A stretch of DNA of 64,000 nt from a virus (IMGVR_UViG_2687453341_000003:1-64000); one strand, 5' to 3'. Numbered from the stretch's first letter, positions 25,362 to 51,300 are shown. The notes: generated by a model not told the origin, from the letters alone. Numbers and translations are program-made.

Positions 25362-25407
25362 CATCACGTAAACGATTCCATTCCCTTTCCCAAACGGAGA
25401 AACACAG

Positions 25408-25906: not shown

Positions 25907-25943
25907 GGCTTGAGCTTTCGCCAACCGCATGGCTCATGTGTGT
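25907..25943 (+). promoter_or_regulatory. Cassette leader repeat 3
   Basis: GGCTTGAGCTTTCGCCAACCGCATGGCTCATGTGTGT. Confidence 0.8.
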
Positions 25944-25989
25944 CATCGCGTAAACGATTCAAACCTTTTTCCAAAACGGAGACACAAAC

Positions 25990-26247: not shown

Positions 26248-26452
26248 GCCACAGACCAGCGGAATGCCACGGACGCCGCGAATGGAAGCGCGGCGTTCTT
26301 CCGCTTGGTCGCGACACACGCCCACTGCCGCGTGGTGTATCCCTTCTTCGACTAAGTACCCAACAATCAAAACATCGCAACACGGGCCAACGTCGGGGCC
26401 CGTAAGGCCTCCCCTGAAACATGGAAGAACACGGGAAAAAACTGCTGAAATC

Positions 26453-26489
26453 GGCTTGCTACCGGTTAAACCGCATGGCTCATGTGTGT
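26453..26489 (+). promoter_or_regulatory. Cassette leader repeat 4
   Basis: GGCTTGCTACCGGTTAAACCGCATGGCTCATGTGTGT. Confidence 0.8.
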
Positions 26490-26538
26490 CATCGCCCAGC
26501 GACCAACTGCTTTCACCACGCAATAGGAAAACAAACCG

Positions 26539-26814
26539 ATGTCCCGAACCAATGCCAGAACCGTTGCTATCAGAACCGCCTTCAAACAAATGCCTCGCGC
26601 CACCGCGATGGACCTCTGTGAGGACTATCGCGAAGTGGTCACAAGGTTGAAACGAATGACCGACAACTTGGCCGGCGCATTCGTGGTCGCGAGTGGAGAT
26701 TCGGCCCGTGCCCTGGAAGCAGAACTCCGCATGTTCGAAGAGGCCATAGACGTCCTTGCCGGCAGCATGCTGCCCGAAGTAATCGAAGAATATCTGGCTT
26801 CCAAGGAATGCTGA
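26539..26814 (+). CDS. Small hypothetical protein (cassette 1 only)
   Basis: AGGA RBS; follows a leader repeat. Confidence 0.75.
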   Translation: MSRTNARTVAIRTAFKQMPRATAMDLCEDYREVVTRLKRMTDNLAGAFVVASGDSARALEAELRMFEEAIDVLAGSMLPEVIEEYLASKEC

Positions 26815-26842
26815 GAAAACCTGCTGAAAACATTGCAAGGAC

Positions 26843-26879
26843 GGCTTGAGGTTAATCGAACCGCATGGCTCATGTGTGT
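26843..26879 (+). promoter_or_regulatory. Cassette leader repeat 5
   Basis: GGCTTGAGGTTAATCGAACCGCATGGCTCATGTGTGT. Confidence 0.8.
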
Positions 26880-26922
26880 TATCGCATAACCAATTTTCAT
26901 TCACCCAAACGGAGAACCAAAC

Positions 26923-27195
26923 ATGAACCTCGACACCCTGATCGAAATCCTCAGCGACTACCGCGAAGAGTTCGGAGGCGACGCCGAAGTGCGACTGATG
27001 ACCCAGCAGAACTGGCCCTTCGAGAACCGGATCTGCGGCGTTACCAGCGGACGCGACATAAACGACGCGTCCGACGATGAGGATGAAGACGACGACGCCC
27101 AAGACGTTGCCGACGACTACACGGTCTACATCGTCGAAGGCGGGCAGATCTGCTACGGCAGCAAGCGGGCTTGGGAAACGTGTCGCGATAGTTGA
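26923..27195 (+). CDS. Small acidic hypothetical protein (homolog at 40459-40716)
   Basis: EVRLMTQQNWPFE motif and Asp-rich loop; GGAGA RBS. Confidence 0.85.
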   Translation: MNLDTLIEILSDYREEFGGDAEVRLMTQQNWPFENRICGVTSGRDINDASDDEDEDDDAQDVADDYTVYIVEGGQICYGSKRAWETCRDS

Positions 27196-27257
27196 CCGCG
27201 ACACATCGATGCGCCAAGGAGAAGATTCTGGAAAACCTTCAGAATCTTTTCTTCTTC

Positions 27258-27294
27258 GGCTTGCTGTCGGTTGAGCCGCATGGCTCATGTGTGT
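27258..27294 (+). promoter_or_regulatory. Cassette leader repeat 6
   Basis: GGCTTGCTGTCGGTTGAGCCGCATGGCTCATGTGTGT. Confidence 0.8.
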
Positions 27295-27339
27295 CAACGC
27301 ACTTGCGAGTTCACATCTACAAACCATAGGAGTAACACA

Positions 27340-27549
27340 ATGGCTGGTCACACACCACAACAGTACGAATCGTACAACGACAACTGGGCCGAGGTTCAAA
27401 ACCAACTGGCCTCTATCAAGGAACGGATTGACCAGTTCCCAAATCCACATTATGAGAACTTCAGTTTCTACGAGCACCAAAGCTTCACCCTGCGAGAGGT
27501 GGCACGAGCGCTCGAGGGCTTGCGCGAGTATCTCGGCATCGCCGACTAG
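27340..27549 (+). CDS. 69-aa hypothetical protein (cassette 1 only)
   Basis: AGGAG RBS precedes MAGHTPQQY. Confidence 0.75.
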   Translation: MAGHTPQQYESYNDNWAEVQNQLASIKERIDQFPNPHYENFSFYEHQSFTLREVARALEGLREYLGIAD

Positions 27550-27754
27550 TAGACCCAGCGTCAAATCAGAACCGCGGCGAATGCATGTGCCGCGTTGACT
27601 GGCTAACACAACGCGACACATCAAACGTGTCGCGTTCTTTCTTCTGCCTGCGCCCAATGATGGAACAAGAATACGAACGCGACACAAACGAACGTGGGCA
27701 AAATTGGGCGATGGGGAGAAACATGGAAAAAGACTCGGAAAAGCTGCTGGAATT

Positions 27755-27791
27755 GGCTTGATGCTGTTCAAACCGCATGGCTCATGTGTGT
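27755..27791 (+). promoter_or_regulatory. Cassette leader repeat 7
   Basis: GGCTTGATGCTGTTCAAACCGCATGGCTCATGTGTGT. Confidence 0.8.
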
Positions 27792-27837
27792 GCATACCAA
27801 ACGCGGTTTCAAACCAACCCAACACCGGAGAGACACG

Positions 27838-28086
27838 ATGCCAACCATGACCAACCGACCACGCCTGACCTCGGCCCAGTTCCTCGGAGCGCACCGGCGA
27901 GCGCTGGAAACAATCAGCGACCTGTACGCAGTGGTCGAAGAGATGCCGATCCTCGCCGCTTCCGACCCATCGACCATGAAACAGTTCTTCGACGAACTGG
28001 CTGATGTGCAGGCCACCGCAGCGAAACTCGCCCAACATTTCCGAACGCAGGTATGCACCGAAGAAAAGAATTCGAATTCCTTTTGA
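27838..28086 (+). CDS. 82-aa hypothetical protein (cassette 1 only)
   Basis: GGAGA RBS precedes MPTMTNRP. Confidence 0.7.
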   Translation: MPTMTNRPRLTSAQFLGAHRRALETISDLYAVVEEMPILAASDPSTMKQFFDELADVQATAAKLAQHFRTQVCTEEKNSNSF

Positions 28087-28090
28087 ATCC

Positions 28091-28127
28091 GGCTTGATGC
28101 GGTTCAAACCGCATGGCTCATGTGTGT
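28091..28127 (+). promoter_or_regulatory. Cassette leader repeat 8
   Basis: GGCTTGATGCGGTTCAAACCGCATGGCTCATGTGTGT. Confidence 0.8.
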
Positions 28128-28170: not shown

Positions 28171-28485
28171 ATGACCCAACACGACCTCGACCTGACGATC
28201 ACCAAGATCAGCAATCGCAACCGCGGTGCTGGCGGGTCTTGGGTGCAAGGCAAGATCAACGACGAATACCGATTCGATGCTTTGGTCTTCGCCGAACACG
28301 CAGAACACGAATCGTACGAATTGAACCAGAGCAAGATTTCGAAGCTTTGGGTTCAACGCCTGGCAGACCGCAAAGTGATGTTCAACTTCGATCGCGGGTT
28401 GGATGTGCCAGCGGTCAATACAGAGGTGCAGGTGATAGTCGACTTTCTCTGCGAGGGATTGTCGGACTTGGTCTTTGGTCAATAA
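28171..28485 (+). CDS. Conserved small phage protein (DUF7678-like; homolog at 41209-41523)
   Basis: WVQG.I...RF.ALVF, SKISKLW and FNFDRG.D motifs. Confidence 0.8.
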   Translation: MTQHDLDLTITKISNRNRGAGGSWVQGKINDEYRFDALVFAEHAEHESYELNQSKISKLWVQRLADRKVMFNFDRGLDVPAVNTEVQVIVDFLCEGLSDLVFGQ

Positions 28486-28554
28486 GCCGAAACGCAGCAC
28501 GGACGCGCGTAGTCGATCGGTGGTTCGATCGGCCTGACGATGGCAGCCAACCAC
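28486..28554 (+). ncRNA. Type II hammerhead ribozyme with loop-I pseudoknot
   Basis: GCC-GAAA, stem III, GUA cleavage triplet (28509-28511), stem I GUCGAUCG/CGAUCGGC, core CUGACGA, then U-GGC. Loop GUGGUU is complementary to downstream AACCAC. Confidence 0.88.
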
Positions 28555-29874: not shown

Positions 29875-30105
29875 ATGACCATGCACACACGACTGAATAA
29901 AGGCGATCGCATCCGCTTGGTGTCGATGCCGCAAGATCCAGACCCGATCCCCGTTGGATCGCTCGGGACCGTCATTGATGTTCACGAGCATCACGATTGG
30001 ATGCAGGTCGATGTCGATTGGGACAACGGCCGCTCCCTCATGCTGACGATGCCCGACGATTGTGTCGCCATCGTCGAACCCAACCACCACGAACCATCGA
30101 AGTAA
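29875..30105 (+). CDS. DUF4314-family protein
   Basis: GDRIRLVSM..DPDPIP.G..GTV and V.WDNGRSL.L motifs. Confidence 0.8.
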   Translation: MTMHTRLNKGDRIRLVSMPQDPDPIPVGSLGTVIDVHEHHDWMQVDVDWDNGRSLMLTMPDDCVAIVEPNHHEPSK

Positions 30106-30117: not shown

Positions 30118-30435
30118 ATGTCCACAAGAGCAACGATTGCCTGCAAGCAAGAAGACGGTCGCTACGCAGCGATCTACCTTCACTTCGATGGCTACCAAGA
30201 CCACGCCGGCAGAGTCCTCAAAGAACATTACACATCGATCGAGTCGGCACGAACGCTGGTCGCAGGTGGCGATATTCGATCGCTCGCTAACGACGGAACG
30301 CCCGAACGATTCACCGACGGTAATCGCACGGTTGTCATGCCGACGCGCGCGGCTCTCCACGAGTTCGCGAGGAACTGCGGCACCGAGTATGTTTACGTTT
30401 TCGAGGACGACGCTTGGCATTGTCATAGGCTTTGA
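30118..30435 (+). CDS. Conserved phage protein with an MSTR...Y.H.DGY motif
   Basis: MSTRATI, IYLHFDGY and EYVYVF..W motifs; AAGGA RBS. Confidence 0.8.
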   Translation: MSTRATIACKQEDGRYAAIYLHFDGYQDHAGRVLKEHYTSIESARTLVAGGDIRSLANDGTPERFTDGNRTVVMPTRAALHEFARNCGTEYVYVFEDDAWHCHRL

Positions 30436-30441: not shown

Positions 30442-30864
30442 TTACTGATTCGATGAGTTTTGTTTTGCACGAAGTTTCCGATTGCGTTTCGCGATGACGG
30501 CGAGGTCCGATAGACAGCGCTTGCACACCCCCATCACACCGTTGCGTCCCTTGTATTCGTAGAACTCCGTGTCGACGGGCCGATACCATTGGCAGCGCCG
30601 ACAGCGTTTCAACCAGCGGCTGCCAACTCGGATGCAACCGCTGTGAATCCGCTTGTGCTCCAAGCGAGTCACCAGCATGAGGTTCTCAAGTCGGTTATCG
30701 AGCTTGTCACCGTTGCGATGGTGTAGCTCCATGCCTTCAGGGATAGGCCCATGGTGCGTCTCCCAGACGATTACATGCTCAAACCTTTGCTTCCGATCCT
30801 TGCACGTGATCCGTCGATAGCCGAACGGCGTGATTGAACCTCTGGCCGGTGACCGTTGCGTCAT
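30442..30864 (-). CDS. HNH endonuclease with a C-terminal Zn-binding CxxC pair
   Basis: EHVIVWE.HHGPIP, HHRNGDKLDNRLENL and EH...H motifs. Confidence 0.9.
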   Translation of the reverse strand: MTQRSPARGSITPFGYRRITCKDRKQRFEHVIVWETHHGPIPEGMELHHRNGDKLDNRLENLMLVTRLEHKRIHSGCIRVGSRWLKRCRRCQWYRPVDTEFYEYKGRNGVMGVCKRCLSDLAVIAKRNRKLRAKQNSSNQ

Positions 30865-31833
30865 CGCATGTTCTCCTCTCGCGCCTTCATGGGGATCGGA
30901 GATTCGCCCGTTCGTTCCAAGACCGCAGGGATACCTGTGAAACGCTGGAAGCGATCAACGATGACATCACAATACAGCGTGTCGAGTTCCATCAAGAACG
31001 CGTTGCGACCGCACTGCTCAGCGCCGATCAGCGTTGAGCCACTGCCACCGAACAGGTCGAGGACGTTCTCGCCTTGAACCGACGAATACTGCATCGCGCG
31101 GACAGCGAGTTCAGCCGGCTTGCCCGTTAAATGTTCAAGCTGTTGCGGAGGGATCTTCTTGACATGCCAAAGGTCCGTGATGTTCTTCGGTCCATAGAAC
31201 TTATGGCCGGCACCTTCTTTCCAGCCATAGAACGCCCATTCATGCGCGCCCATGAAATCTTTTCGCGTCAAAACTGGATGCTGCTTGTCCCAGATGATTG
31301 ATTGCGAGAAGTACAGCCCATGCTTCTTCAGTACCGGTGGATAGTTGCCGCAGTTGGCGTAGCCACCCCAGATGTAGAAGCAGCGACCTGGCAGTAAGAC
31401 TCGGGCAATGTTTCCAAACCAATCATCAAGCAGCTTGTCGAACGCCTCGTCGCTGACGAAGTCATTTGCAAGCGGTCGATCCTTTGGACGAAGCTTCTTG
31501 TGAGTCGCTGCATGTTTTGGTTTGCCCGTTTCGTGATCGACACCAAACGAAGCGGCGTTGCCTTGTCCTTGCTTCAGCCGGCCCGATGCCCCATCGTTCG
31601 AGAACGAAGACAAACCCGCAGCGATCGCGTTATTCGATCGCGGTTCGACCTTTACGTTGTAGGGCGGATCTGTGTTGCACAAGTGGATCGCAGCGCCGGC
31701 CAAGAGCCGATCTAAGTCCGCCGGCGACGACGAGTCACCACAGAGTAGCCGATGGTTTCCGAGGATCCAAAGATCGCCTGGTTGGGTAACCGCTTCGTCT
31801 GGCGGCTCCGGCACATCGTCTGGATCGGTGAGC
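30861..31833 (-). pseudogene. 5'-truncated DNA methyltransferase (N6A/N4C, beta class) that lacks the ParB domain
   Basis: DPPY and DLFGGSGST are intact. Alignment to 42775-44166 ends at LTDPD; an unrelated N-terminus continues in frame to 31970. Confidence 0.8.
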
Positions 31834-32274
31834 TTCCAGGCAACCCACTGATTCCGATCGCGAATGCAACTTGGACAATTCTGGTCGATAGCTTCAAGAG
31901 GCGGTTGGGGTGCGGAACCTCCCCGGACCGACCCTGATAAGGAACCTTCTCGGAGAAGTCGATTTCGCAACTGCTTGAAAAACGAGGGCTTACGGAGTTC
32001 GAGACCGAATCGCTCGGTCGTAAAAGGTGTGCCGCGTTACGGAAAATCTGCTTAACAGTCAGGACTTTCGCTGCGCGCGTTTTTAGTCATTTTAGCTTTC
32101 CGCGACCTGCACATAAGTTCTTGTTTGAACAGTCGTTAACCGCTTTCGGGTTACATCGGTGCCCCGCATCGGTCTCGAACGCATGCGACATACTACTTAG
32201 CAATCACTGCGAACCGGCTGCACCGCCATGAAGCAGTTGTTACATGCAGCCGTCGAACTATCCTAGACCCACAT

Positions 32275-33654
32275 CCGGGGTGCAAAAAGTGCGCTCCGCC
32301 TATGTATTTCTCGGGAATTCACGGCTTTTCATCATGGCAAGCTTCCGCAACGTTTACACATCCCTCTTGCTCGTCATTGCCGGGTCAACGGACAGGGAAC
32401 TTGCCCGCCAGGTCAACTACCTCAAGGCGGAGAACCAAATCCTTCGCAGTCGGCTTCCTGGTCGGATCAGTCTAACTGAACGCGAGAAGAACCGCCTGAT
32501 TCGTTTTGCCAAAAATCTTGGTTCGGCACTCAATGAGTTGGCCACGATTGTTCACCCCGGGACCATCCATCGCTGGATTCGCGAAGCCGCAGCAAAATCC
32601 AAGGCGCGCCGAAAAGGCAAAAGCGGCCGTCCCCGGACTGCAAAGGATATCGAGAAACTGATCCTTAAACTGGCCAAAGACAATTCCTGGGGCTACACCA
32701 GGATCCTCGGCGAACTAAAGAAACTTGGGATCGAATCGGTAACGCGCAACACGGTCAAAAACATTCTCAAACGCAATGGCTTCGAGTCAGGCCCTAAGCG
32801 AGGACCGGGCACTTGGGACGAGTTCGTCAATCGCCATGCGAAAACGCTTTGGCAATGCGACTTCTTCTCGAAGAAGATCGTTTCGAAGGCTGGCCTTCGA
32901 GACATCTTTGTTTTGATCTTTATCAACGTTGAAACACGTCGCGTCTACATTTCGCCGTCGACCTACAAGCCAGATGAGCAATGGATGGTTCAGCAAGCGA
33001 CAACGTTTATCGAGTCGACAAAGGCGGGAGGTCCGAAATGCAAGATCCTGATGCTCGACAACGACGCAAAGTACTCCAAGCTGTTCATGGACGTATTTGA
33101 AAAGGGAAAAATCAAAATCCAACGAACTCCGATCCGATCCCCGAACATGGTCGCCTTTGCCGAACGATTCGTTCAAACGATCAAGCAAGAATGTCTCGAC
33201 CATTTCGTCGTTTTTGGCCACAAACACATGGACCTCCTGTGCCAAGAATTCAAAGACTACTATCACGAAGAACGGCCGCATCAGGGACTGGAGAACGAGC
33301 TTGTGATTGACGGTACGAGAACGAAGAAACGATCGAAGTCTGGAACGACACAATCCGAAGCCGTATCGATTCCGATTTCTGAGATTCGTTGCAAAGAACG
33401 GCTCGGTGGACTGCTCAAGAGCTATAGCCGCAGAGCGGCGTAGCTCAAGTCATCGTTCCACTTCCTTTGATACGTTCACTTCAGGTTTGTGCTTACTGCT
33501 GCGCACGACGCGAACATCCATCTGCACCGCAGCCATCTGTGTCCAAAAATGATCAATGTGCTATCTCAAACGTGATTCCAACTGCTCTCGATCCCTTACC
33601 TATTTCGTTCGGAAAATCACCTTGCTCGATGCAATCTAGTTTTTGCACAGGGCG
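32275..33654 (+). mobile_element. Insertion sequence encoding an rve-type DDE integrase/transposase
   Basis: Short inverted termini GTGCAAAAA (32280-32288) and TTTTTGCAC (33640-33648). The right end coincides with the portal breakpoint. Confidence 0.65.
32334..33443 (+). CDS. Integrase core domain (DDE) transposase
   Basis: N.SWGY.RI.GEL, WQCDFF (D), DNDAKY (D), AERFV.TIK.ECLD (E), Y.EERPHQG and RLGGLL motifs. Confidence 0.92.
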   Translation: MASFRNVYTSLLLVIAGSTDRELARQVNYLKAENQILRSRLPGRISLTEREKNRLIRFAKNLGSALNELATIVHPGTIHRWIREAAAKSKARRKGKSGRPRTAKDIEKLILKLAKDNSWGYTRILGELKKLGIESVTRNTVKNILKRNGFESGPKRGPGTWDEFVNRHAKTLWQCDFFSKKIVSKAGLRDIFVLIFINVETRRVYISPSTYKPDEQWMVQQATTFIESTKAGGPKCKILMLDNDAKYSKLFMDVFEKGKIKIQRTPIRSPNMVAFAERFVQTIKQECLDHFVVFGHKHMDLLCQEFKDYYHEERPHQGLENELVIDGTRTKKRSKSGTTQSEAVSIPISEIRCKERLGGLLKSYSRRAA

Positions 33655-36291: not shown

Positions 36292-38559
36292 TCAAACCCG
36301 TCGTCGCCCCTGCATTTCCTTGAAACTCAGTCGATTTCGCTTCTCGGGAACATCTCGATCGGTACCAAAGAGCACAACGCCTTGCATGGATGCCGCAACG
36401 GCAGTGCCTACCAAACAGTCGAACCAGTGGTTGTCGGGCTGCTCGGGTCGCTGCTTCCATTCGTCAACTGATCGGCCACGCCCTTCCGTTTTGATGAAAT
36501 ATTCGGACGTGAGATGCTCGGAGAGCATACGGTGGGTTTCGGCGTTGCTACCAAAAAGCGATAAGCAGCCGCGATCGCCCATGGAGACTCGCATTCGAGC
36601 GTTGATGAATGATTTCCACCAGTTGGTGTCATAGAGCACGTGTCGGATGGCGCGCTTGCCATTTACGTTGGGCACGCGCCAGTTGAGACCGACCCGGTCT
36701 CCGGGCCGACGTCGATACTCGCTGAACGGTTGACTTGAAGCACCTACGAATCTCCCGTGGCTCGGCATGATCACGGCGGCATGTTTGGATTGCCGGCAGA
36801 ACTGATAGACCACATCAGTCGATTGGCCCCAGTTGGCGTCGATCAAGCAGCGACCGATTCGCATTGCAGCCCCATCGTCTCGTTGCCACTCGCGATCGAG
36901 TAGATTGGATGTCAGCGATTCAAGGCCGGCGTAGATCGATCCCTCGAGCCCAGTTCCCATTGCCTCGGAACTCAACGTTTGCCGAGCTTCCCGTAATGTG
37001 AAGTACGGACGCTGCTGATCGGGATAGCAACCGTAGTCAATGATATAGCCTGTGAAATCATCCTCCCAGGCAGCGACTACATAGAAGAGCAATTTCTGCT
37101 GGACGTCGATGAATGCGGTGAGGTGGTTTGCTCCGATGGAAACCAAGCCGCGATCCAAGCGGTTGATCTTGCTTGCAACCTCTGCGGGTTTGAGCATCCC
37201 ATCGCTAACCGTCTCGGCTGGCAGCGGTTGGTTCTGGTATTCAGCGAAGAACGCAGCTTCATCCTGAAGCTTGAGGTTCATAGCATGCTGGATTGCCGAA
37301 AGTTCATCGTAGTTAAATCGCTCCTGCCAAGCGACAACAGCGCCGTCATCCATAGCCGCTTGGTTCTGACGATAGAATTCGGTGGCTGCTTCACCACCAT
37401 CACCACCTCGCATCCCTTCCGCGCGGATCTCGGCATAGCGTTCCCAAAGTGTTTCGTTCTTTGGGAAGGAGTAAACCATCTTGGTTCGTTCGCCATTCCA
37501 TTCGGGATGTCGATTGCGATCGAGGATATTGTCGGCCATATCACCAGGGCGAATCACCGTGCAGGGCATGATGCCTGAGATCTTCTTCCCCGGGCCAGCC
37601 AAACCGAGCACTGCACCGGCAAGAATGCTTTCGCGATTTGCACATTGCGAAAGCGAACGCGCACTCTCATCGGTTTGCGGGTCATCGAGCACCACGAGGC
37701 TTGGACGGACCGTTCGACCATCGGGGCGCTTGAACTTCATTCCACGGATACGACCGGTTAGGCCAGCGACCTTGATAATCGCTCCGCTGGCACTGCTACC
37801 TTCGATGGTTGGCAGCACAACCTCTTTGGCGGTCCATCCGATCTGCGTGCGTTTGCCTTTATAGAGCTGACCATTCGCGCGATTTGAGATTCCATCGAGG
37901 GCTTGGATGGGAAAACAAACCTCGGGGAAGTCGGCTAAAAGCAGCTCGTTGCTGTCGAGTTCGGTTTTGATCGAATCGAGCATGTCGCAGGCGTGGCCTT
38001 CGTCGCTACCGATCAGACAGACGAAGTTCCGATGTCCGTAGAGCACTGCCCAGATGCAAGCGACTTCTGCGATCGACGATTTTCCACTGCCACGTGCCAT
38101 CGCCAAGGCAAACAATCCCCCATGGACAACAGCTTGCTCAATTTTGTTGATGACCTTGATATGGTCCGGAGACCATGCGAGATGAAACGTGAGCGGAAAG
38201 TAGGTCTCGCAAAAGTATCGGAAGTCTCGCGATGCGCGATCTTTCCGATCGGGATTGTCTACCACCGGAAGTTCACCGATATCTCGGCCGGCTAGCGCGA
38301 GCGCTGCGTTGCGTGCTCGAGCTCGCTCCTTCATCGCTTCGTACGAATCGACCCCTGAGTTTTGTTTGGGAGTATGGCGTACGACGTGCATCCAGGCGCA
38401 GTAGCGAAGGAGGTCGACCGTCTTGTTGTCACCGATACGGGCGCCGGCGCGTTGCCGATGACGATACAACTGCCGCTCGCTGATCACCTCGCCTAGCGGC
38501 GTTGAGTTGAGCAGCCGGCATAGCTCACTTGGCTTTAGTTTTCGAGGATCACTCGCCAC
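36292..38559 (-). CDS. Terminase large subunit (copy 2)
   Basis: Same motifs as 21531-23801, with many synonymous differences. Confidence 0.92.
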   Translation of the reverse strand: MASDPRKLKPSELCRLLNSTPLGEVISERQLYRHRQRAGARIGDNKTVDLLRYCAWMHVVRHTPKQNSGVDSYEAMKERARARNAALALAGRDIGELPVVDNPDRKDRASRDFRYFCETYFPLTFHLAWSPDHIKVINKIEQAVVHGGLFALAMARGSGKSSIAEVACIWAVLYGHRNFVCLIGSDEGHACDMLDSIKTELDSNELLLADFPEVCFPIQALDGISNRANGQLYKGKRTQIGWTAKEVVLPTIEGSSASGAIIKVAGLTGRIRGMKFKRPDGRTVRPSLVVLDDPQTDESARSLSQCANRESILAGAVLGLAGPGKKISGIMPCTVIRPGDMADNILDRNRHPEWNGERTKMVYSFPKNETLWERYAEIRAEGMRGGDGGEAATEFYRQNQAAMDDGAVVAWQERFNYDELSAIQHAMNLKLQDEAAFFAEYQNQPLPAETVSDGMLKPAEVASKINRLDRGLVSIGANHLTAFIDVQQKLLFYVVAAWEDDFTGYIIDYGCYPDQQRPYFTLREARQTLSSEAMGTGLEGSIYAGLESLTSNLLDREWQRDDGAAMRIGRCLIDANWGQSTDVVYQFCRQSKHAAVIMPSHGRFVGASSQPFSEYRRRPGDRVGLNWRVPNVNGKRAIRHVLYDTNWWKSFINARMRVSMGDRGCLSLFGSNAETHRMLSEHLTSEYFIKTEGRGRSVDEWKQRPEQPDNHWFDCLVGTAVAASMQGVVLFGTDRDVPEKRNRLSFKEMQGRRRV

Positions 38560-38755
38560 GGCCCATCTCCTTTGCTTGCCAAGCGCTATAGTTCACGAGG
38601 TTGATCGTGCCATCGGCGTTCGCGGGCGCACCTTCATGGAGATCGCTTCGGATCTTCTCGGCATCGATCCGTTCTCGGTAGGCAGCGGACAGAAGTTTCG
38701 CGGCTTGTTCGATCGAGAGTCTCGTCGGATCGACCGGCTGTTTGTCTTCACTCAT
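38549..38755 (-). CDS. Small pre-terminase protein (copy 2)
   Basis: Homolog of 23791-23997. Confidence 0.75.
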   Translation of the reverse strand: MSEDKQPVDPTRLSIEQAAKLLSAAYRERIDAEKIRSDLHEGAPANADGTINLVNYSAWQAKEMGRGE

Positions 38756-38934
38756 CGCATTCCTCCGTGACTTGGTAGTTCAAAACGTGGGGCCACTGTT
38801 TGCGCCGTGTCGCGTTTCCCCATCCACTTCGCCTGGTTATGCGAAGCATGTTTGAACGCGACGGTGGCGTAATGTTGGGGCACCGGTGGCTTCTCGAAGA
38901 ACATGCGAAATTGCTGGAAAAACATGATGCAATT

Positions 38935-38972
38935 CGCTGGATGATTCCTCTCCCGCAAGGCTTCATGTGTGT
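38935..38972 (+). promoter_or_regulatory. Variant cassette leader repeat with a 1-nt insertion
   Basis: CGCTGG-N14-GCAAGGCTTCATGTGTGT. Confidence 0.65.
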
Positions 38973-39030
38973 TGTCGCGACGCGAAGAACGCGACGAAAC
39001 ACAAACCTTGCACCCCAGAGGAACATCACC

Positions 39031-39888
39031 ATGAACGCAAACGAAATTTTCTTTGGTCTGGAATTTGAGACGACGCTTCCGAACAGTGACACCACACCAA
39101 TCGGCCCCTACCACAACGGATACCAAGTCCCTTGGTTGCCAAACGGATGGAAAGCGGAACGCGATGGTAGCATCCGCCCTGAGAGCCCATGCCGCAAAGG
39201 ATGCGAGTTCGTAAGCCCCAAGCTGAAAGGTTACGATGGCCTCAAGGAAATCGAGGAAGCGATCGACCAAATCAACGCTCGTGGGGGACGAGTCAATTCG
39301 AGCTGTGGTCTCCATCTTTCGATAGATTGGCGTGGCGACGCAGCGGCACTCGCACGACTGATCTCCCTGGTTGGCAACCACGAGAAAGCGATTTTCGCGA
39401 GTACTGGGACTCGCCGCCGCGAACAAACGATCTACACCAAGCAGATCAAGCAATACGGCGACAAAGACGCTGCGAAGAATCGATGTGAAGCGGATCGCTA
39501 CCACCTGCTGAACCTTACCCACCTCGCTGCCGGTAGAAACCGTATCGAATTTCGGGCTTTCGCAGGAACTCTCAACAAGACCAAGGTGGTCGGATACCTG
39601 ATGATGGTTTTGGGATTGGTAGAGCTGGCCCTGAACACCAAACGCTGCAGCGATTGGGACTACATCAAGAAGGAAGGAACCAAAAGCTGCTGGGATAGAC
39701 CAGGCGCCGGCCTTGGGGAAACGGAGATCAACCGATTGTTCTACCGCCTCGGTTGGACCAAGGGTTGGTACAAGGGCGCTCTTCGCGACAAGGTTTACGG
39801 GGAGATCACAGGGGAAACCAAACCGGATTGGAAGGCGATCAAGACCAAGCTGATCGAGCTTGCCCGCAAGTACGACCGCGCGGCCTAG
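39031..39888 (+). CDS. Putative amidoligase (copy 2)
   Basis: FGLEFE, CEFVSP, NSSCGLH and IEFR motifs. Confidence 0.85.
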   Translation: MNANEIFFGLEFETTLPNSDTTPIGPYHNGYQVPWLPNGWKAERDGSIRPESPCRKGCEFVSPKLKGYDGLKEIEEAIDQINARGGRVNSSCGLHLSIDWRGDAAALARLISLVGNHEKAIFASTGTRRREQTIYTKQIKQYGDKDAAKNRCEADRYHLLNLTHLAAGRNRIEFRAFAGTLNKTKVVGYLMMVLGLVELALNTKRCSDWDYIKKEGTKSCWDRPGAGLGETEINRLFYRLGWTKGWYKGALRDKVYGEITGETKPDWKAIKTKLIELARKYDRAA

Positions 39889-39902
39889 GACTAATCCAGA
39901 CG

Positions 39903-39931
39903 AAACGCCGGGAAAACAATCCCGGCGTTTT
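39903..39931 (+). terminator. Hairpin terminator, potentially bidirectional
   Basis: AAACGCCGGGA-loop-TCCCGGCGTTTT. Confidence 0.6.
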
Positions 39932-39954
39932 GACGTTTTCTGGCCCACCATTTC

Positions 39955-39984
39955 GCCAGTATGGCGTCGGCTTGAGTAGTTCAA
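39955..39984 (+). promoter_or_regulatory. Bipartite motif GCCAGTA-N11-TGAGTAGTTCAA
   Basis: Same spacing as the three other copies. Confidence 0.65.
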
Positions 39985-40087
39985 AGATAGTGGGCAATCG
40001 TCTTCGGCGTCGTCGCATATCGCGTTTTGTGCGACATGTCGCAGATCAGAGAAACCTGTGAGATTTGCCATTAATCCTCGCATGTTC

Positions 40088-40124
40088 GGCTTGAGGTTAT
40101 CTAAACCGCATGGCTCCATGGTGT
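40088..40124 (+). promoter_or_regulatory. Cassette leader repeat (cassette 2)
   Basis: GGCTTGAGGTTATCTAAACCGCATGGCTCCATGGTGT. Confidence 0.75.
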
Positions 40125-40170
40125 CATCGCGTAAGCGATTCGAAACCGAGTTCCCAACGGAGACACAAAC

Positions 40171-40428
40171 ATGACCAACGCAAGCAACCCACACGCAGCG
40201 ACCGACGCGACCCTTCGCCAAATCTTCAAGGCGATGGACGCCCACCAAGCCCAAGAGATCCGCGAAGCCTACTACAAGGCGATCGAGGGACTGATGACCT
40301 TGGCTGAAACCCTCGAAGTCGCCGACGCACAACAAACCCCCAGCGCCGGCCCGCTTCTCACCGAACACTTCCACGCGGTCCAAGCGTTGGACGCCATGAA
40401 GAACAGCCGCCTCGGCAAGATCCTCTAA
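40171..40428 (+). CDS. Small hypothetical protein (homolog of 25990-26247)
   Basis: Near-identical protein. Confidence 0.85.
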   Translation: MTNASNPHAATDATLRQIFKAMDAHQAQEIREAYYKAIEGLMTLAETLEVADAQQTPSAGPLLTEHFHAVQALDAMKNSRLGKIL

Positions 40429-40458
40429 ACCCAAGAACATAACGAAGGAGAAATCAAC

Positions 40459-40716
40459 ATGAAGCTCGACACCTTGATCGAAATCCTGAACGACTACCGC
40501 GAAGAGTTCGGAGGCGACGCGGAAGTGCGATTGATGACCCAGCAAAATTGGCCCTTTGAGAACCGTATCTGCGGTGTAACGAGCGGGCGCGACATGAACG
40601 AATCGGATGAGGACGATGACCAAGATGTCGCTGACGACCAAACGGTCTACATCGTCGAAGGGGGGCAAATCTGCTACGGCAGCAAGAGGGCTTGGGAAAA
40701 CTACAAGGATAGCTGA
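40459..40716 (+). CDS. Small acidic protein (homolog of 26923-27195)
   Basis: AAGGAG RBS; near-identical protein. Confidence 0.85.
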   Translation: MKLDTLIEILNDYREEFGGDAEVRLMTQQNWPFENRICGVTSGRDMNESDEDDDQDVADDQTVYIVEGGQICYGSKRAWENYKDS

Positions 40717-40722
40717 ACGCAA

Positions 40723-40962
40723 ATGTATATCGGACAACTTCATTTGGTAACCGACCTCGAAGACGGAGATCGGGCCTATCCAGAGGCGAACGTCTCGTAC
40801 GAAATCGAATCGATTGACGACTCTTCGCTCAATACGACCGTCGCGTATGTCGAGCGACGAGGGAATCGGCTGATTGCAAGAGGATACAACGGACGGGATT
40901 ACGCCGTCTCGGGCGTCGATGGTTACGAACTTTACGCGGTTCGAAAGCCGCCACAGCGATGA
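40723..40962 (+). CDS. 79-aa hypothetical protein (distant homolog of 29161-29394)
   Basis: Shared motifs; directly follows the previous stop codon. Confidence 0.75.
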   Translation: MYIGQLHLVTDLEDGDRAYPEANVSYEIESIDDSSLNTTVAYVERRGNRLIARGYNGRDYAVSGVDGYELYAVRKPPQR

Positions 40963-41128
40963 TGATTGCCCGCTTCGCGACATCGCCCCACGTTTGCGAC
41001 GTGAGGGCGTTCTTTTCTCGATTGGCGTCATTTCCCCCAGATGCAATGCGATGCGACTGTGGCCAAACGGTTGCGACTGTGGGGCTCGGAAACATTCTTC
41101 AAAAAAGCATCGAACTACTTTTTGAATT

Positions 41129-41165
41129 GCCTTGCTGTTTATCAAAGTGCATGGCTCATGTGTGT
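41129..41165 (+). promoter_or_regulatory. Cassette leader repeat (cassette 2)
   Basis: GCCTTG-N14-GCATGGCTCATGTGTGT. Confidence 0.8.
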
Positions 41166-41208
41166 ATACGCCCCAACGAATTGATAACCCAAACGAAGAG
41201 ATGCATAG

Positions 41209-41523
41209 ATGACTCAACACGACCTCGACCTGACGATTACCAAGATCAGCCACCGAACCCCTGGAGCAGGAGGTTCTTGGGTCCAAGGGAAGATCAACAA
41301 CGAATACCGATTCGATGCCCTGGTCTTCTCGGAACACGCGGAATGCGAATCGTACGAATTGGGAAGGAGCAAGATTTCGAAGCTTTGGATCCAACGCCTT
41401 TCCGATCGCGCGGTGATGTTCAACTTCGACCGCGGGTTGGATGTCGCTGCGGTCAACACCGAGGTTCAGGTGGTGGTTGATTTTCTTTGCGAAGGACTCT
41501 CCGACTTGGTCTTTGGTTCCTAA
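41209..41523 (+). CDS. DUF7678-like protein (copy 2)
   Basis: Homolog of 28171-28485. Confidence 0.8.
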   Translation: MTQHDLDLTITKISHRTPGAGGSWVQGKINNEYRFDALVFSEHAECESYELGRSKISKLWIQRLSDRAVMFNFDRGLDVAAVNTEVQVVVDFLCEGLSDLVFGS

Positions 41524-41592
41524 GCCGAAACGCGGAAGCGATCCGCGTCGCCGATCGGTGGTTCGATCGGCCTGAAGACGGCAGCCAACCAC
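41524..41592 (+). ncRNA. Type II hammerhead ribozyme with pseudoknot (copy 2)
   Basis: GCC-GAAA, perfect stem III ACGCGGA/UCCGCGU, GUC triplet (41547-41549), perfect stem I GCCGAUCG/CGAUCGGC, CUGAAGA, C-GGC, and GUGGUU:AACCAC pairing. Confidence 0.92.
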
Positions 41593-41616
41593 GAACATGA
41601 ACAAGAGGTGATCAAG

Positions 41617-42201
41617 ATGAAGAAGGCAGACGTAAAGATCGGCGGCAAGTATTACGCGAATGTTTCCGGCAACCGTTGTGAAATCCGAATTGATGCTGAG
41701 AAACCGCGTGGCGGATGGGATGCCACGAATCTGGCCACAGGCAAGAAGATTCTTATCAAAAGCGCACAGCGTCTTCATGGGGAGGTGACGACGCGAGCCG
41801 GCCAAGCCAAGGTGACCACCGAGGGAAATGTCACCGTGGTCGAGAATGAGCCGGCAACTGTCGAATCGTTCGGGGAGTCCGCGACCAAGGTGGCCGTTCT
41901 TAAGAAGCCTCGTAAAACCAAACCTGCTGCAAACGAATCGGCGGCGGCCGAAACAGCGGCGACTGGGAAAAAACGAATGAGCTGCATCGAAGCGGCATTG
42001 AAGGTCCTCTCCGAATCCACAGAACCCATGAACACGCAACAGATGATTGCTGCCATGGAAGCGAAGGGGTACTGGTCGAGCCCGGGTGGAAAAACTCCCC
42101 ACGCGACCCTCTACAGCGTGATCCTTCGCGACTTGGCCAAAGGCGATTCGAGCCGGTTTGTAAAAGCCGAGCGCGGACGCTTTACAGTCTCCACCAAATA
42201 A
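41617..42201 (+). CDS. HARE-HTH winged-helix protein (copy 2)
   Basis: GKTPHATLYSVILR motif; homolog of 28579-29148. Confidence 0.8.
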   Translation: MKKADVKIGGKYYANVSGNRCEIRIDAEKPRGGWDATNLATGKKILIKSAQRLHGEVTTRAGQAKVTTEGNVTVVENEPATVESFGESATKVAVLKKPRKTKPAANESAAAETAATGKKRMSCIEAALKVLSESTEPMNTQQMIAAMEAKGYWSSPGGKTPHATLYSVILRDLAKGDSSRFVKAERGRFTVSTK

Positions 42202-42219
42202 GCCGAAGGCGATGCAATC

Positions 42220-42771
42220 ATGCGAATTCGATTGAAGAGTGGCGACCGCATACGGTTGGTCTCGATGCCTGATGATCCCGATCCAATCCCGGTCGGGATG
42301 CTTGGAACCGTCACCGAGGTTCATGAGCATCGAGACTGGATGCAGGTTGAGGTGGATTGGGACAACGGCCGCTCCCTGATGCTGACCCTTCCCGATGACT
42401 GTATTGAGATCATCGATTCCCAGAACTCCGAATCCTGTAGGGACCACACCATGTCGACGCGAGCAACGATTGCCCATTCCGATAGCGATGGGAGCTACCA
42501 CGCTACCTACCTGCATTTCGATGGATATCCGGAACATGCAGGGGTGATTCTCAACCAATGGTACAACTCCATCGAGAAGGCCTCGGCGTTGATCGCCGGA
42601 GGAGAACTGCGAAGTTTGAACTCGAGCGATGGGGCACCCGAGTATTTCTCTCGGGCACAACCCCCAAAGCATCTCTGCGACCGGATGTCGCTCATGACGT
42701 TTGCACGCGGCTGCGATGCGAACTACCTTTACGTCTTCGAAGACGGGCATTGGCACTGCCACAAGCTTTAG
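42220..42771 (+). CDS. In-frame fusion of DUF4314 and the MSTR..H.DGY protein
   Basis: Both domains are separate genes in cassette 1; the internal ATG at 42451 is retained. Confidence 0.8.
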   Translation: MRIRLKSGDRIRLVSMPDDPDPIPVGMLGTVTEVHEHRDWMQVEVDWDNGRSLMLTLPDDCIEIIDSQNSESCRDHTMSTRATIAHSDSDGSYHATYLHFDGYPEHAGVILNQWYNSIEKASALIAGGELRSLNSSDGAPEYFSRAQPPKHLCDRMSLMTFARGCDANYLYVFEDGHWHCHKL

Positions 42772-42774
42772 CTC

Positions 42775-44166
42775 TTACTTGGCGTCCGCAGCACGCATCG
42801 GAATCGGAGACTCGCCGGTCCGCTCCAAGATCGCCGGCTTGCCAGTGAATCGCTGGTAGCGATCAACGATGACGTCGGCGTAGAGGCAATCGAGTTCCAT
42901 CAAAAAGGCATTGCGACCGCATTGCTCGGCGCCGATCAAGGTCGAGCCGCTACCACCGAAGAGATCAAGCACATTCTCGCCAGGGAGCGACGAATACTGC
43001 ATGGCTCGTATCGCAAGCTCCACAGGCTTTTCGGTGAGGTGGATCATTGATTGCGGATTGACCTTCTTTACTTGCCACAGATCGGTTGCATTGTTGGGCC
43101 CGTAGTACTTATGCCCCGCCCCTTCCTTCCATCCGTAGAACGCCCATTCATGCGCGCCCATGAAGTCTTTGCGTGTCAAAACAGGATGCTGCTTGTCCCA
43201 AATGATCGATTGGGAGAAATACAAACCATGCTTAGCAAGGAACGGAGGGTAGTTGCCACAGTTGGCGTAGCCTCCCCAGATGTAGAAGCACCGGCCAGGC
43301 AACAGAACGCGTGCGATATTCCCAAACCACGCATCGAGCAATCGATCGAACTCGTTGTCGCTAACAAAGTCGTTCGCGAGGGGGCGATCCTTAGGCCGGA
43401 GCTTCTTATGCGTTGCAGCGTGCTTTGGTTTCCCCGTCTCATGATCGACACCAAAGGAAGCAGCGTTCCCTTGCCCTTGCTTAAGTTTCCCCGACGCAGC
43501 GTCGTTGGTGAACGAGGATAGGCCGGCCGCGATCGCGTTGTTCGATCGTGGTTCCACTTTGACATTGTACGGAGGGTCAGTGTTGCAAAGATGAATCGCA
43601 TTGCCGGCCAATAAGCGATCTAGATCCGCAGGACTCGAAGAATCCCCACAGAGCAAACGATGATTTCCGAGGATCCAAAGATCCCCTGGCTTAGTGATCG
43701 CAGCATCTGGAGGTTCCGGGATTTCGTCCGGGTCGGTCAAGCCTTCGTTGACTCCGGTATCCATCAGCTTCGCAAGTTCCTCCGCGTTAAACCCAAGCAG
43801 CCCGAGGTCGTAGTTTGCTTCCTGCAATGCCGACAATTCGATCGGCAACAGATCGTAATTCCATTCCGCGATCTCAGCGGTCTTGTTATCTGCGATGCGG
43901 TAGGCTCGGACTTGCTCAGGCGACAGGTGCGCCGCTACAACAACGGGCACTCGCTCGAGTCCGAGCTTCTGCGCGGCTTTCAATCTTGTATGCCCGACGA
44001 TGATGACACTATCACTATCGACAACGATTGGCTGTGAGAAGCCATACTCCTTAATCGAAGCAGCGACGGCGTCAACGGCTTTATCGTTGTTGCGGGGGTT
44101 GTTTTCGTAGGGACGAACGCGATCGAGGGTCCACATTTCAATCTGCAATGCATTGATGGTTGACAT
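42775..44166 (-). CDS. ParB-like N-terminal domain fused to a DNA methyltransferase (N6A/N4C)
   Basis: PYENNPR.N, GF..PIVVD, GHTRLKAA and RIADNK, followed by DPPY and DLFGGSGST. Confidence 0.93.
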   Translation of the reverse strand: MSTINALQIEMWTLDRVRPYENNPRNNDKAVDAVAASIKEYGFSQPIVVDSDSVIIVGHTRLKAAQKLGLERVPVVVAAHLSPEQVRAYRIADNKTAEIAEWNYDLLPIELSALQEANYDLGLLGFNAEELAKLMDTGVNEGLTDPDEIPEPPDAAITKPGDLWILGNHRLLCGDSSSPADLDRLLAGNAIHLCNTDPPYNVKVEPRSNNAIAAGLSSFTNDAASGKLKQGQGNAASFGVDHETGKPKHAATHKKLRPKDRPLANDFVSDNEFDRLLDAWFGNIARVLLPGRCFYIWGGYANCGNYPPFLAKHGLYFSQSIIWDKQHPVLTRKDFMGAHEWAFYGWKEGAGHKYYGPNNATDLWQVKKVNPQSMIHLTEKPVELAIRAMQYSSLPGENVLDLFGGSGSTLIGAEQCGRNAFLMELDCLYADVIVDRYQRFTGKPAILERTGESPIPMRAADAK

Positions 44167-48982: not shown

Positions 48983-49447
48983 TCAGAACGGTATATCCCC
49001 TGATGATGGGACTTCACCGCTTGATGCCGCAGCAAGACGAATGCGTCGATTGAAGTAGACGTTGGTGTAGTCACCACGAGTCCGCTTCGTGACTTCCAAG
49101 GTCACATCGAGCAGTTCTTCGAGTCGCCCAGACAATTCGCTGAATTTGGAAAGTTCGATCCCCAGCGTTTTTAGGTCTCCCTTTACATAGGGAATCGACG
49201 CTTGGGTGATGACCGAGTTCTTGAAGATGTGGCGGCCGGCCTGGGAGCCAGACATCACTTCCAAATCGAACTTAATCATCGGATCGCCCTTCTGACTTGA
49301 CTCAAGCTTCACCGACTCGATGCGAGCTTGATACTTGCCATCGGGGACTTCGTCGTACTCCGGTGCCTCCGCAGTTTCGAACTCTTCATCGAACGACGAC
49401 AAATCGACCGAGGGATTGTTGGGTTCGTATTCTTCGTAATCGCTCAT
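48983..49447 (-). CDS. DUF669-like phage ssDNA-binding protein
   Basis: VPDGKY.A.I and S.KG.PM motifs; C-terminal DIPF tail. Confidence 0.8.
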   Translation of the reverse strand: MSDYEEYEPNNPSVDLSSFDEEFETAEAPEYDEVPDGKYQARIESVKLESSQKGDPMIKFDLEVMSGSQAGRHIFKNSVITQASIPYVKGDLKTLGIELSKFSELSGRLEELLDVTLEVTKRTRGDYTNVYFNRRIRLAAASSGEVPSSGDIPF

Positions 49448-51300
49448 TACTTAACAGCCTTTCCTGCTGGGGTGCTGCCCGGATTGGAAGAAGACGCAGC
49501 AGAGCCTTTGCCGGGCGCAGGGCTCTGTGCGGTTGAATTTGATGTGTTGCCGCTGAATGCCGAATTGAAAGCGGCATAGCTCAGTGGCAGCATTTCTGGC
49601 AAGCGACCCGTGCGATCGCCGGCTTCGTAAGTGGGATGCGGCTTGGTTCGGAGCACGCGATCGACAACAAGATTGCCTGCAGCGTCCTTACGCGAGACCG
49701 AGTCACCGTAGAGGATGATGTCGACTAGGCCCAACACAACGTTGCGAGCCCGATCAGGCAAGCTTGGGGTCGTTTTGGTGTATTCCCCGGTTCGCGTTTC
49801 AATTGTCTTGTCGACGGCATGCGAAATGAGAATCAAGCCGTATGGCAAACTAGCCAAACGCGTCAGTACTCGATGCCATTCGTTCTTGACCAGAGCCCAG
49901 CCTTTGCCGTGGCCCATGTCCCCTTCGTACTCGATGCCATGTTTGGCACAGACATAGTCCGAGCACATCTTGAAGGCGTTGTCGACCGTGTCGATCACCA
50001 ACGTCTTGAAGTTGTGATCACCCTTGGCGATGAGTTTGCAAGCTTCCAGGAATGTTTCCCACGAATAGGTTGGCACCTTGAACACTTCCAAGTGATTAAG
50101 ACCTGGCTCGCATTCGAAGAACATCGCCTCCGGGAATTGGGAAGCAAAACTCGAGTTATGAACGACGAAGTCGTTGGCTACGAAGTTATGAGTGTCCGGA
50201 ATTGTGAGATCGTAGATTCGACCGGTGCCCAATGGAACAATACTCTTGATGCGATCAAAAAGTATGTTCCCCTGACGATCTAACTGTGTTGAAGCGGCGC
50301 GAATGGAGTATAAGCCTTGGCGAAGTTGCTCAGCCGCGATTTGCTTCTCGCCAAATACACCGATGTCGTCCAGAAATCGCAAGATGTCTTCTTTGGCGGC
50401 GATGTACAGCTCTGCGCCGTACAGCTCACCATCGATAAATCGATCTCGCATGAGACTGACGATTCCAAATCGCAGTAGCAGATGCTGAACCTGTCTCACC
50501 ATTCGAATTGACTTCGAACTGTATGAGACCTTTTTCTTTTCGACCGAACCATCACAGCTAAACAAGCGATTCAAAAAGAGTGCCATTCGCTCTCGTTGAA
50601 GACCGAATACAAAATCGGGAATGAATTTATCGCCAGATCGCAAGCCGTCGATGCCATGTTCTCGAATGAATCGCAAGACATTATTGCGACCAATACGCCC
50701 ACCCTTCACTCGCACCTGTGGGATGCCTTGATCATTGACGAACTCAAGGAATTCATCGCCAATCGATTCAACGGCCTGCTTGAAATCTTCGCGAACTTCT
50801 TCGTCAACCTTCGTAAATACTGGACTCGTACCGCCGAGGCTCCCATCAGCTAAGAGGTAAGCCAGGACTTTGAGAAATTCGGGTTCTGTCCGGACTGTAC
50901 CGAACAGTGACGAATACTCAGCGACGACACCGATTTTGTCATTCTCTTTCAATACGCTTAGCGGTGCCCATCCTTCGCGGGTTAAGAAGGGATGCTCAGC
51001 AGTCGCATCGATAGTGCGGCCTGACTGCGTCGTGATCCGAAACAACATGGCTTCGCCGTTGTCGATGTAGTCGGTTGGATCAGCTGACTTGATGATGCCG
51101 GCCATCCCCATCGATAAGACTGTGCCTTCCTTGCTGGTCACAAGGTCTGCCAAGGTAACTGGCTGCCCAGAAGTTGGGTCATATAGGACTGTATTGCCAG
51201 CGAGACACTTGCCTAGTTTTGGAACGCCATAGAGCAAGATCGACTGCTTTGCCAAGTCGGTGGTCGGCCTGGTCTTGGCTGTTGGTAGAGTCAGTGTCAT
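49447..51300 (-). CDS. AAA-family (Sak4-like) recombination ATPase interrupted by an intein
   Basis: Walker A YGVPKLGK|S split by the insert; LVIDTVD, LILISH and VDIILY motifs. Confidence 0.88.
   Translation of the reverse strand: MTLTLPTAKTRPTTDLAKQSILLYGVPKLGKCLAGNTVLYDPTSGQPVTLADLVTSKEGTVLSMGMAGIIKSADPTDYIDNGEAMLFRITTQSGRTIDATAEHPFLTREGWAPLSVLKENDKIGVVAEYSSLFGTVRTEPEFLKVLAYLLADGSLGGTSPVFTKVDEEVREDFKQAVESIGDEFLEFVNDQGIPQVRVKGGRIGRNNVLRFIREHGIDGLRSGDKFIPDFVFGLQRERMALFLNRLFSCDGSVEKKKVSYSSKSIRMVRQVQHLLLRFGIVSLMRDRFIDGELYGAELYIAAKEDILRFLDDIGVFGEKQIAAEQLRQGLYSIRAASTQLDRQGNILFDRIKSIVPLGTGRIYDLTIPDTHNFVANDFVVHNSSFASQFPEAMFFECEPGLNHLEVFKVPTYSWETFLEACKLIAKGDHNFKTLVIDTVDNAFKMCSDYVCAKHGIEYEGDMGHGKGWALVKNEWHRVLTRLASLPYGLILISHAVDKTIETRTGEYTKTTPSLPDRARNVVLGLVDIILYGDSVSRKDAAGNLVVDRVLRTKPHPTYEAGDRTGRLPEMLPLSYAAFNSAFSGNTSNSTAQSPAPGKGSAASSSNPGSTPAGKAVK
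50155..51207 (-). mobile_element. Intein with a LAGLIDADG homing endonuclease (351 aa)
   Basis: Starts CLAGNT, block B AT.EHPF, endonuclease blocks LAYLLADG and LNRLFSCDG, ends YDLTI..THNFVAN.FVVHN followed by Ser+1. Confidence 0.95.

Follow-up and report, generated by a model that had tools for sequence, protein, structure and literature searches.

Overlapping stop and start codons of the ATGA type are a familiar means of translational coupling in polycistronic operons. Leader or upstream open reading frames (ORFs) whose translation controls Rho-dependent termination are equally well known, as is operon polarity, and lambdoid phages achieve processive antitermination by modifying RNA polymerase (N, Q, put RNA). 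Coupled transcription and translation, which bears on polarity, is the subject of a review (PMC7858274), and two further reports describe, respectively, the long antisense overlapping genes olg1 and olg2 of Pseudomonas aeruginosa, of 957 and 1536 nucleotides (nt) (PMC8850804), and hammerhead ribozymes that flank genes in prophage gene blocks (PMC3088659). Here we analyze a stretch of viral DNA of 64,000 nt (IMGVR_UViG_2687453341_000003:1-64000, hereafter the window), in which the minus strand carries an ORF of 1336 codons, the bridge ORF, antisense to an entire cassette of seven plus-strand genes and lying between a DNA methylase gene and a gene for a protein of 68 amino acids (68 aa) that precedes the large terminase gene. 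The chances seem to us evenly balanced that a phage may use such a very long ORF, translated without yielding a useful protein, as a ribosome-carried bridge across reverse-facing genes and, jointly with this, that the need for the bridge dictates the frame, the leucine and serine codon choice and the spacer lengths of all the genes on the opposite strand.

Two lambda-like prophages lie in tandem in the window; they belong to a Pirellula-type planctomycete, whose genome holds four in all, and the cassette studied here is the second of the two in the window (Table 1). The minus-strand operon of this lineage leads from the replication genes through the ParB-methylase gene, the 68-aa gene and the large terminase gene to the portal gene, and it is tightly packed, with stop/start overlaps and, upstream of the methylase, a dense ORF tiling with many 4-nt overlaps. 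The seven plus-strand genes (39031-42771) are real: four belong to Pfam families, the ratio of nonsynonymous to synonymous substitution rates (dN/dS) in the sense frame is 0.11-0.28, and the fractions of variable columns at sense codon positions 1, 2 and 3 are 0.20, 0.13 and 0.57. As claimed in the original prediction, made from the sequence alone, they share one frame, all starts (39031, 40171, 40459, 40723, 41209, 41617, 42220) being equal to 1 modulo 3. The same prediction described a 1336-codon antisense ORF in frame with the methylase and ending on the next start codon, and the positions agree: the methylase TAA (42777-42775) is followed in frame by GAG CTA AAG CTT GTG, and at the far end the bridge TGA (38754-38752) overlaps the ATG (38755-38753) of the 68-aa gene. 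Candidate starts are GTG 42762, GTG 42756 and ATG 42750, at +12, +18 and +24 nt from the methylase stop; the bridge owes its ATG and GTG start codons to the C-terminal histidine codons of cassette gene 7, a conserved His-rich motif, on the opposite strand. The translation of the bridge resembles the reverse of a coding sequence and has no match in Pfam or PHROG; with either of the two starts tried, it is not among the called proteins in a collection of 15 billion. Annotation pipelines call the sense genes and not the bridge.

Long antisense ORFs may arise by chance, as compositional shadows without function, and the genome gives this idea some footing. The background frequency of TTA, CTA and TCA, the sense codons that read as stops in the codon-aligned antisense frame, is low genome-wide (1.6%), and a shadow ORF of 1259 codons (G000:C1:1970298-1974074, minus strand) lies opposite a single giant gene of 4999 codons; inside one gene, long codon-aligned antisense ORFs do arise by codon usage in this genome. 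The cassette, with its many genes and spacers, is a different matter. None of the 1022 codons of its seven genes is TTA, CTA or TCA, versus 250 of 10002 (2.5%) in 18 minus-strand phage ORFs of the window; given the leucine and serine content of the cassette and the codon usage of the phage, 20.1 would be expected, and the probability of finding none is about 2e-9. Counted by phase relative to the bridge (0, 1 and 2), the same triplets number 0, 40 and 40. Randomizations were run 2000 times for each kind and the longest ORF was measured: it reached 689 codons when synonymous codons were resampled, 943 when spacers were shuffled and 364 when both were combined with frame shifts, versus the 1336 observed, a length attained in 2 of the 2000 runs when frame shifts were applied alone. 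The refuter named in the original prediction, that such lengths are expected from base composition, was thus not borne out by simulation. With codon log-odds scored without the stop-related codons, which otherwise dominate the result, the four cassette ORFs of the 6.5-Mb genome are its four longest antisense-type ORFs; they cross 16-28 opposite-strand in-phase stops (20 for the bridge) versus 0-5 for nearly all others, and three shorter ORFs (547-575 codons) cross 13-16.

The pattern extends well beyond this locus, with the reservation that related loci share ancestry and that all counts among them are therefore of non-independent samples. All four copies in this genome have a cassette ORF (2101, 1340, 1375 and 1561 codons). 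Among 401 genomes sampled from the same order, 28 contain the DUF7678 gene of the cassette, and 20 of these loci share a common architecture: the terminase and 68-aa genes on one strand, the cassette on the opposite one, then the methylase gene, in some cases with an HNH gene before it. Gene orders differ among these loci, nearly all cassette genes are in the locked frame, and the aligned antisense stretch is at least 1000 codons long in eight, 400-800 in five and below 300 in seven; loci that lack an uninterrupted ORF usually still have the strand covered by a few large ones. Of 32 IMG/VR contigs, 31 contain an ORF of 1352-2514 codons or one that reaches the contig end, and all cassette genes detected in the contigs are in frame 0; a homologue with 36% identity is the exception. 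Further Pirellula and Pirellulaceae genome records agree, with some two-frame cases. A search with the 68-aa protein gave homologues in 56 of the 401 genomes, and forty further loci were examined. Counting distinct cassettes, 56 of 69 are crossed by three ORFs or fewer, and ORF density is 0.85 per kb across cassettes versus 6.6 antisense to other phage genes.

It had been proposed that the open frame is actively selected through gene gain and loss, reordering and spacer turnover, and the relatives uphold this. Gene-to-gene distances are divisible by three in 309 of 315 cases (80 of 86 distinct classes of junction type and length), and over all loci TTA, CTA and TCA account for 19 of 47556 cassette codons versus 1667 of 89128 flank codons. 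Their sister codons were counted in 46 of the 56 loci, ten having been dropped for a broken ORF or a homologue out of context: TTA, CTA and TCA each make up 0.00% of 44288 cassette codons versus 0.38, 0.89 and 0.65% of 82789 flank codons, and the usage of ATA, GTA, CCA, ACA and GCA in the cassettes is normal. DUF7678 homologues outside this context do use the three codons (2 of 94, 3 of 293 and 4 of 94). One proposed test, that spacers should have changed by in-frame insertions and deletions, came out divided: it holds for net spacer lengths and fails for individual gaps, of which 42 of 97 runs are multiples of three, because the alignment is ambiguous and insertions and deletions compensate each other. 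Between lineages the synonymous divergence (dS) of the sense genes is 0.24-2.0, without stops arising, and a neutral open frame could therefore not have persisted. Together with the simulations, the phase specificity, the frame lock and the out-of-context controls, this leads us to reject chance, to which we attach practically no probability.

What, then, does selection keep? The ORF is long and conserved and has start and stop signals, as expected if it encoded a functional giant protein by overprinting, and the accessible text on P. aeruginosa does report long translated antisense ORFs (PMC8850804). Nothing at the amino-acid level speaks for such a product, however. Antisense-frame dN/dS is 1.1-1.7 on the very columns that give 0.11-0.28 in the sense frame, and the antisense frames of the flanking terminase and methylase genes give 1.3-2.2; variability in the spacers, where sense-coding constraint is absent, is 0.368, 0.373 and 0.419 at antisense codon positions 3, 2 and 1, where a conserved protein would show the opposite order. 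The sequence is a mosaic that shifts with the gene content and order of the cassette, and the length of the ORF follows cassette size, from 263 to 2514 codons. A giant protein, which would also be one lacking any Pfam or PHROG match, is in our view very improbable. The openness of the frame is conserved and the antisense amino-acid sequence is free to vary, and the selected trait appears to be the passage of ribosomes and not the polypeptide.

The two ends of the ORF are informative in this respect. Coupling at both ends, another element of the original prediction, is found in the relatives too, among which the ATGA exit overlap is conserved. The exit lies at -14 to +17 nt from the 68-aa gene in 49 of 85 rows (these rows not being deduplicated). 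Where the long ORF ends 40-155 nt early, a short relay ORF is present at 16 of the 20 loci checked, its start lying a few nt at most from the long-ORF stop and its end at or close to where the 68-aa gene begins; the relay exits through ATGA in each of the 12 cassette-1-like loci, and in the first cassette of the window (cassette 1) it is a 50-codon ORF (24146-23994). At four loci without a cassette (L144, L145, L146 and L152) the end of the methylase ORF itself lies -4, -14, -4 and +2 nt from the start codon of the 68-aa gene. Where the HARE-HTH gene is the only cassette gene detected, the distance from the methylase end to the 68-aa gene is still spanned by an ORF, of 263-382 codons and antisense-type in its codon usage, and at L124 the methylase ORF itself runs on in frame through the cassette.

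At the entry, the common feature is a start codon that overlaps the upstream stop or lies no more than about 25 nt from it; among 18 distant loci, 12 have it at -4 to +15 nt from the methylase stop, often after GGAGG. The in-frame lock of the bridge to the methylase holds in the window and is not conserved: relatives enter in frame 0, 1 or 2 with respect to the gene upstream, and a single nucleotide is deleted at 42775 in close relatives. Stop readthrough is therefore rejected as the general mode of entry. Of the two routes offered by the original prediction, re-initiation, with its start near the upstream stop, would be the better fit judging from these junctions. Two loci, L122 and L151, have an extra minus-strand gene (N-terminus MIYLASPYSH) that lies ahead of the bridge and whose start overlaps the methylase stop as ATGA; it resembles, we presume, the deoxyribosyltransferase-like genes of phages.

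The reading that we favor, and consider somewhat on the probable side, is that translation of the minus-strand operon continues without a break across the inverted accessory cassette by way of a translated bridge ORF. An ancestral coupled operon (methylase, 68-aa gene, terminase) would have acquired the cassette, with its own repeated element, terminator and hammerhead, between the methylase and 68-aa genes, and the opposite strand would have been kept as one ORF, or as a short relay of overlapping ORFs, from the upstream stop to the 68-aa gene. The cheapest route to this would be to hold all cassette genes in one frame, replace TTA, CTA and TCA by synonyms and limit spacer changes to net multiples of three; the frame lock would arise because only a one-frame alignment lets synonymous changes alone remove the antisense stops. 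A ribosome trailing RNA polymerase would then keep 1-7.5 kb of antisense RNA, which would otherwise go untranslated, safe from decay and from termination by Rho and help the polymerase past the complement of the 13-bp sense terminator, and the packaging genes would receive ribosomes through translation of the bridge. Termination by Rho and NusG affects transcripts that lack translating ribosomes, antisense RNAs included, according to one report (PMC11551753), and rho is present in the host (PF07497, two matches above the cut-off in the genome). We infer that the bridge ORF is transcribed and translated, and that Rho or polarity would be the selective agent. Rho itself strikes us as a serious candidate for that role, though short of a probable one.

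Several observations weigh against this reading. RNA over the region comes as unstranded, low-depth metatranscriptome contigs that touch parts of it, the methylase/cassette junction included, and from which strand, level and continuity are unreadable. The C/G ratio of the bridge RNA, 0.92-1.03, is like that of the flanks; being no more C-rich or G-poor than these, the bridge RNA is not marked as an unusually good Rho substrate. The entry in the window is without a Shine-Dalgarno motif, and a scan for such a motif followed by a start codon was positive at 21 of 64 entries versus 19% of internal windows, at some loci scoring the methylase ORF itself; genome copy c3 is uncovered for the first 185 nt past the methylase. 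Downstream, the 68-aa gene has a GGAGG of its own, its ribosome-binding site is unmasked, folding no better than shuffled sequences (z 0.25), and it may need no delivered ribosomes. The packaging genes may also have an independent promoter: a scan for sigma-70 promoters gave 0 matches versus 2.9 expected, and planctomycete promoters may differ from the sigma-70 consensus. Finally, three of the 69 cassettes (L038, L135 and L136) are broken into 15-30 ORFs, and at least L038 keeps a full-length match to the terminase; in these the bridge may be dispensable, or the prophages may be decaying.

Some of these points bear equally on a narrower version, in which the ORF serves solely to deliver ribosomes, coupling methylase strictly to 68-aa and terminase genes for the sake of stoichiometry or timing, with no protection from Rho or ribonucleases. 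The conserved ATGA-type exits, the relay ORFs that restore them and the direct overlap of the methylase and 68-aa genes in cassette-less relatives are all in its favor. Yet the receiving gene is provided with a good and unmasked GGAGG 8 nt upstream, exits fall 40-80 nt short of the start without a relay at 4 of the 20 loci checked, and coupling over 1300-2500 codons would bring few ribosomes. We regard delivery alone as unlikely.

Another possibility comes from the sense-strand elements of the cassette. A 19-nt sequence occurs nine times in the window (eight copies in 24194-28127 and one at 41147-41165) versus 0.02 expected, and 12 times in the 6.5-Mb genome, always on the sense strand and inside the four cassettes (the others at 5910633, 5911093 and 5989449). 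It belongs to a repeat of about 40-70 nt found some 45-60 nt upstream of many cassette genes, and one of its three antisense frames, the one containing TGA, is never used. It probably serves the sense genes as a promoter or operator specific to the phage. Such an element, conserved upstream of each sense gene and confined to cassettes that sit at the boundary of the replication and packaging modules, would suit a role in regulation or timing, whereby translated read-through, late in infection, shuts off or overrides the sense promoters of the cassette through head-on interference and by preventing sense/antisense duplexes, or else delays the packaging genes. But interference needs no ORF, and the length of the ORF, hence the delay, varies tenfold among relatives. 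This regulatory role we think improbable, and translational continuity across the cassette remains the reading that we prefer.

The bridge also reads through the complements of two other sense-strand elements, the terminator-like hairpin and a hammerhead ribozyme. In each of the window's two cassettes the hammerhead lies in the spacer that separates the DUF7678 gene from the HARE-HTH gene, and 7 of 10 related loci searched also contain one; the match to the family suggests that sense transcripts may be self-cleaved at these predicted ribozymes. Cassette gene content varies. The DUF4314 and phrog_1987 parts, fused in cassette 2, form two genes in cassette 1 (29875-30105 and 30118-30435). Genome copy c4 has an addiction-module-antitoxin-like small gene (G000:C1:5987701-5987994) in another frame, beside a truncated cassette gene, and its antisense ORF stays open through the insert in a non-aligned frame. 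That the cassette might be an invertible segment was considered and rejected, as there are no flanking inverted repeats.

Table 1. Features of the second cassette and its surroundings, with the hammerhead of cassette 1 for comparison (window coordinates)
Feature	Position	Strand	Remarks
Cassette 1 type II hammerhead	28485-28552	+	RF02276, 39.6 bits vs gathering 37
Large terminase, GpA type	36292..38559	-	PF20454 2.2e-22; overlaps end of 68-aa gene
68-aa gene ahead of large terminase	38549..38755	-	ATG overlaps bridge TGA (ATGA); GGAGG 8 nt upstream
Bridge ORF	38752..42762	-	Stop-free, codon-aligned, antisense to whole cassette; 1336 aa from GTG; 1340 codons stop-to-stop
Cassette gene 1, amidoligase	39031..39888	+	Amidoligase_2 PF12224 1.4e-15; phrog_2443; 0 TTA/CTA/TCA
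Intrinsic-terminator-like hairpin, strong	39901..39932	+	After amidoligase gene; 13-bp stem, T tract
Cassette gene 2, 85 aa, no family	40171..40428	+	Homologues in relatives, always in locked frame
Cassette gene 3, 85 aa, acidic, no family	40459..40716	+	
Cassette gene 4, 79 aa, no family	40723..40962	+	
19-nt cassette-specific spacer element	41147..41165	+	About 45 nt upstream of DUF7678 start
Cassette gene 5, DUF7678	41209..41523	+	PF24726 8.5e-15
Type II hammerhead ribozyme	41523..41590	+	RF02276, 50.8 bits vs gathering 37; CGAAAC and CUGAAGA core aligned
Cassette gene 6, C-terminal HARE-HTH protein	41617..42201	+	PF05066 7.1e-12
Cassette gene 7, DUF4314 fused to phrog_1987 domain	42220..42771	+	PF14192 1.7e-11; phrog_1987 6.2e-23
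ParB-N / N6_N4 DNA methylase	42775..44166	-	PF01555 2.9e-23, PF02195 9e-09; upstream neighbour of bridge

Beyond the cassette, the minus strand continues with the 68-aa gene, the GpA-type large terminase, an acetyltransferase and a lambda-family portal gene. The 68-aa protein has no match in Pfam or PHROG and is presumed to be a small terminase or a helix-turn-helix packaging protein. The two related prophages occupy 457-31970 and 33553-57700 of the window, with a gene for an rve-family transposase (32244-33443, plus strand) at the joint. The methylase of the left prophage (30861-31970) is without the ParB N-terminal part, the right prophage copy seems to end after the portal gene, and a gene for an AAA_24 protein (49447-51300, minus strand) is split, according to Pfam, by an intein that contains a homing endonuclease domain (LAGLIDADG).

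Our search of the full-text literature, mostly outside subscription journals and without supplements, found no description of a frame lock or of an ORF kept open opposite several genes; a planctomycete phage paper mentions an amidoligase, with no bearing in its accessible text on an antisense ORF (PMC10945688). The architecture appears to be new. If our reading is true, this would be the first example of many independent genes being confined to one frame and barred from using three codons solely so that the opposite strand can be translated, and genome architecture would be subject to a new selective force, translation for its own sake. Such bridges would be invisible to gene callers and would probably exist in other phage lineages with inverted accessory islands, and it would become testable how far the coupling of transcription to translation must hold in bacteria beyond the model species, using a natural experiment in which 4-7.5 kb of antisense sequence have been held open by evolution in dozens of phages. 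For annotation, the consequence is that the longest ORF of a region need not be a conventional gene, as is the case here. The findings also bear on how inverted accessory or anti-defence islands are tolerated within phage late operons, and may provide a design rule for placing reverse-oriented cargo in operons.

How does the bridge compare with the systems named at the outset? It shares with olg1 and olg2 a long ORF opposite annotated genes that exceeds compositional expectation, but these, as the accessible text has it, lie inside one mother gene and were reported to be under purifying selection as proteins (PMC8850804), whereas the bridge spans 7-14 genes with their spacers, a terminator and a ribozyme over 4-7.5 kb, is free of amino-acid constraint and forces the sense genes into one frame. 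The cassette hammerhead resembles those in the available part of the prophage report (PMC3088659) in being of type II and lying on the sense strand between two small prophage genes; it differs from them in that the strand opposite it has to remain free of stops in one frame as well. Like the members of coupled operons, the bridge has an ATGA exit and an entry start 0-25 nt from the upstream stop, and unlike them it is a middle 'gene' apparently without a product function, antisense to a whole gene cassette. As with the leader ORFs that gate Rho, it is the act of translation, rather than the peptide, that would protect the transcript; yet leader ORFs are tens of codons long, a scale a hundredfold smaller, and the bridges are hundreds to 2500, are antisense to functional genes and would be constitutive and structural, not sensors. 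Finally, the bridge would do what antitermination does in lambdoid phages, carrying phage transcription past terminators and foreign-oriented DNA to the late genes, but the agent that we propose is a ribosome trailing along a maintained ORF instead of a modified polymerase.

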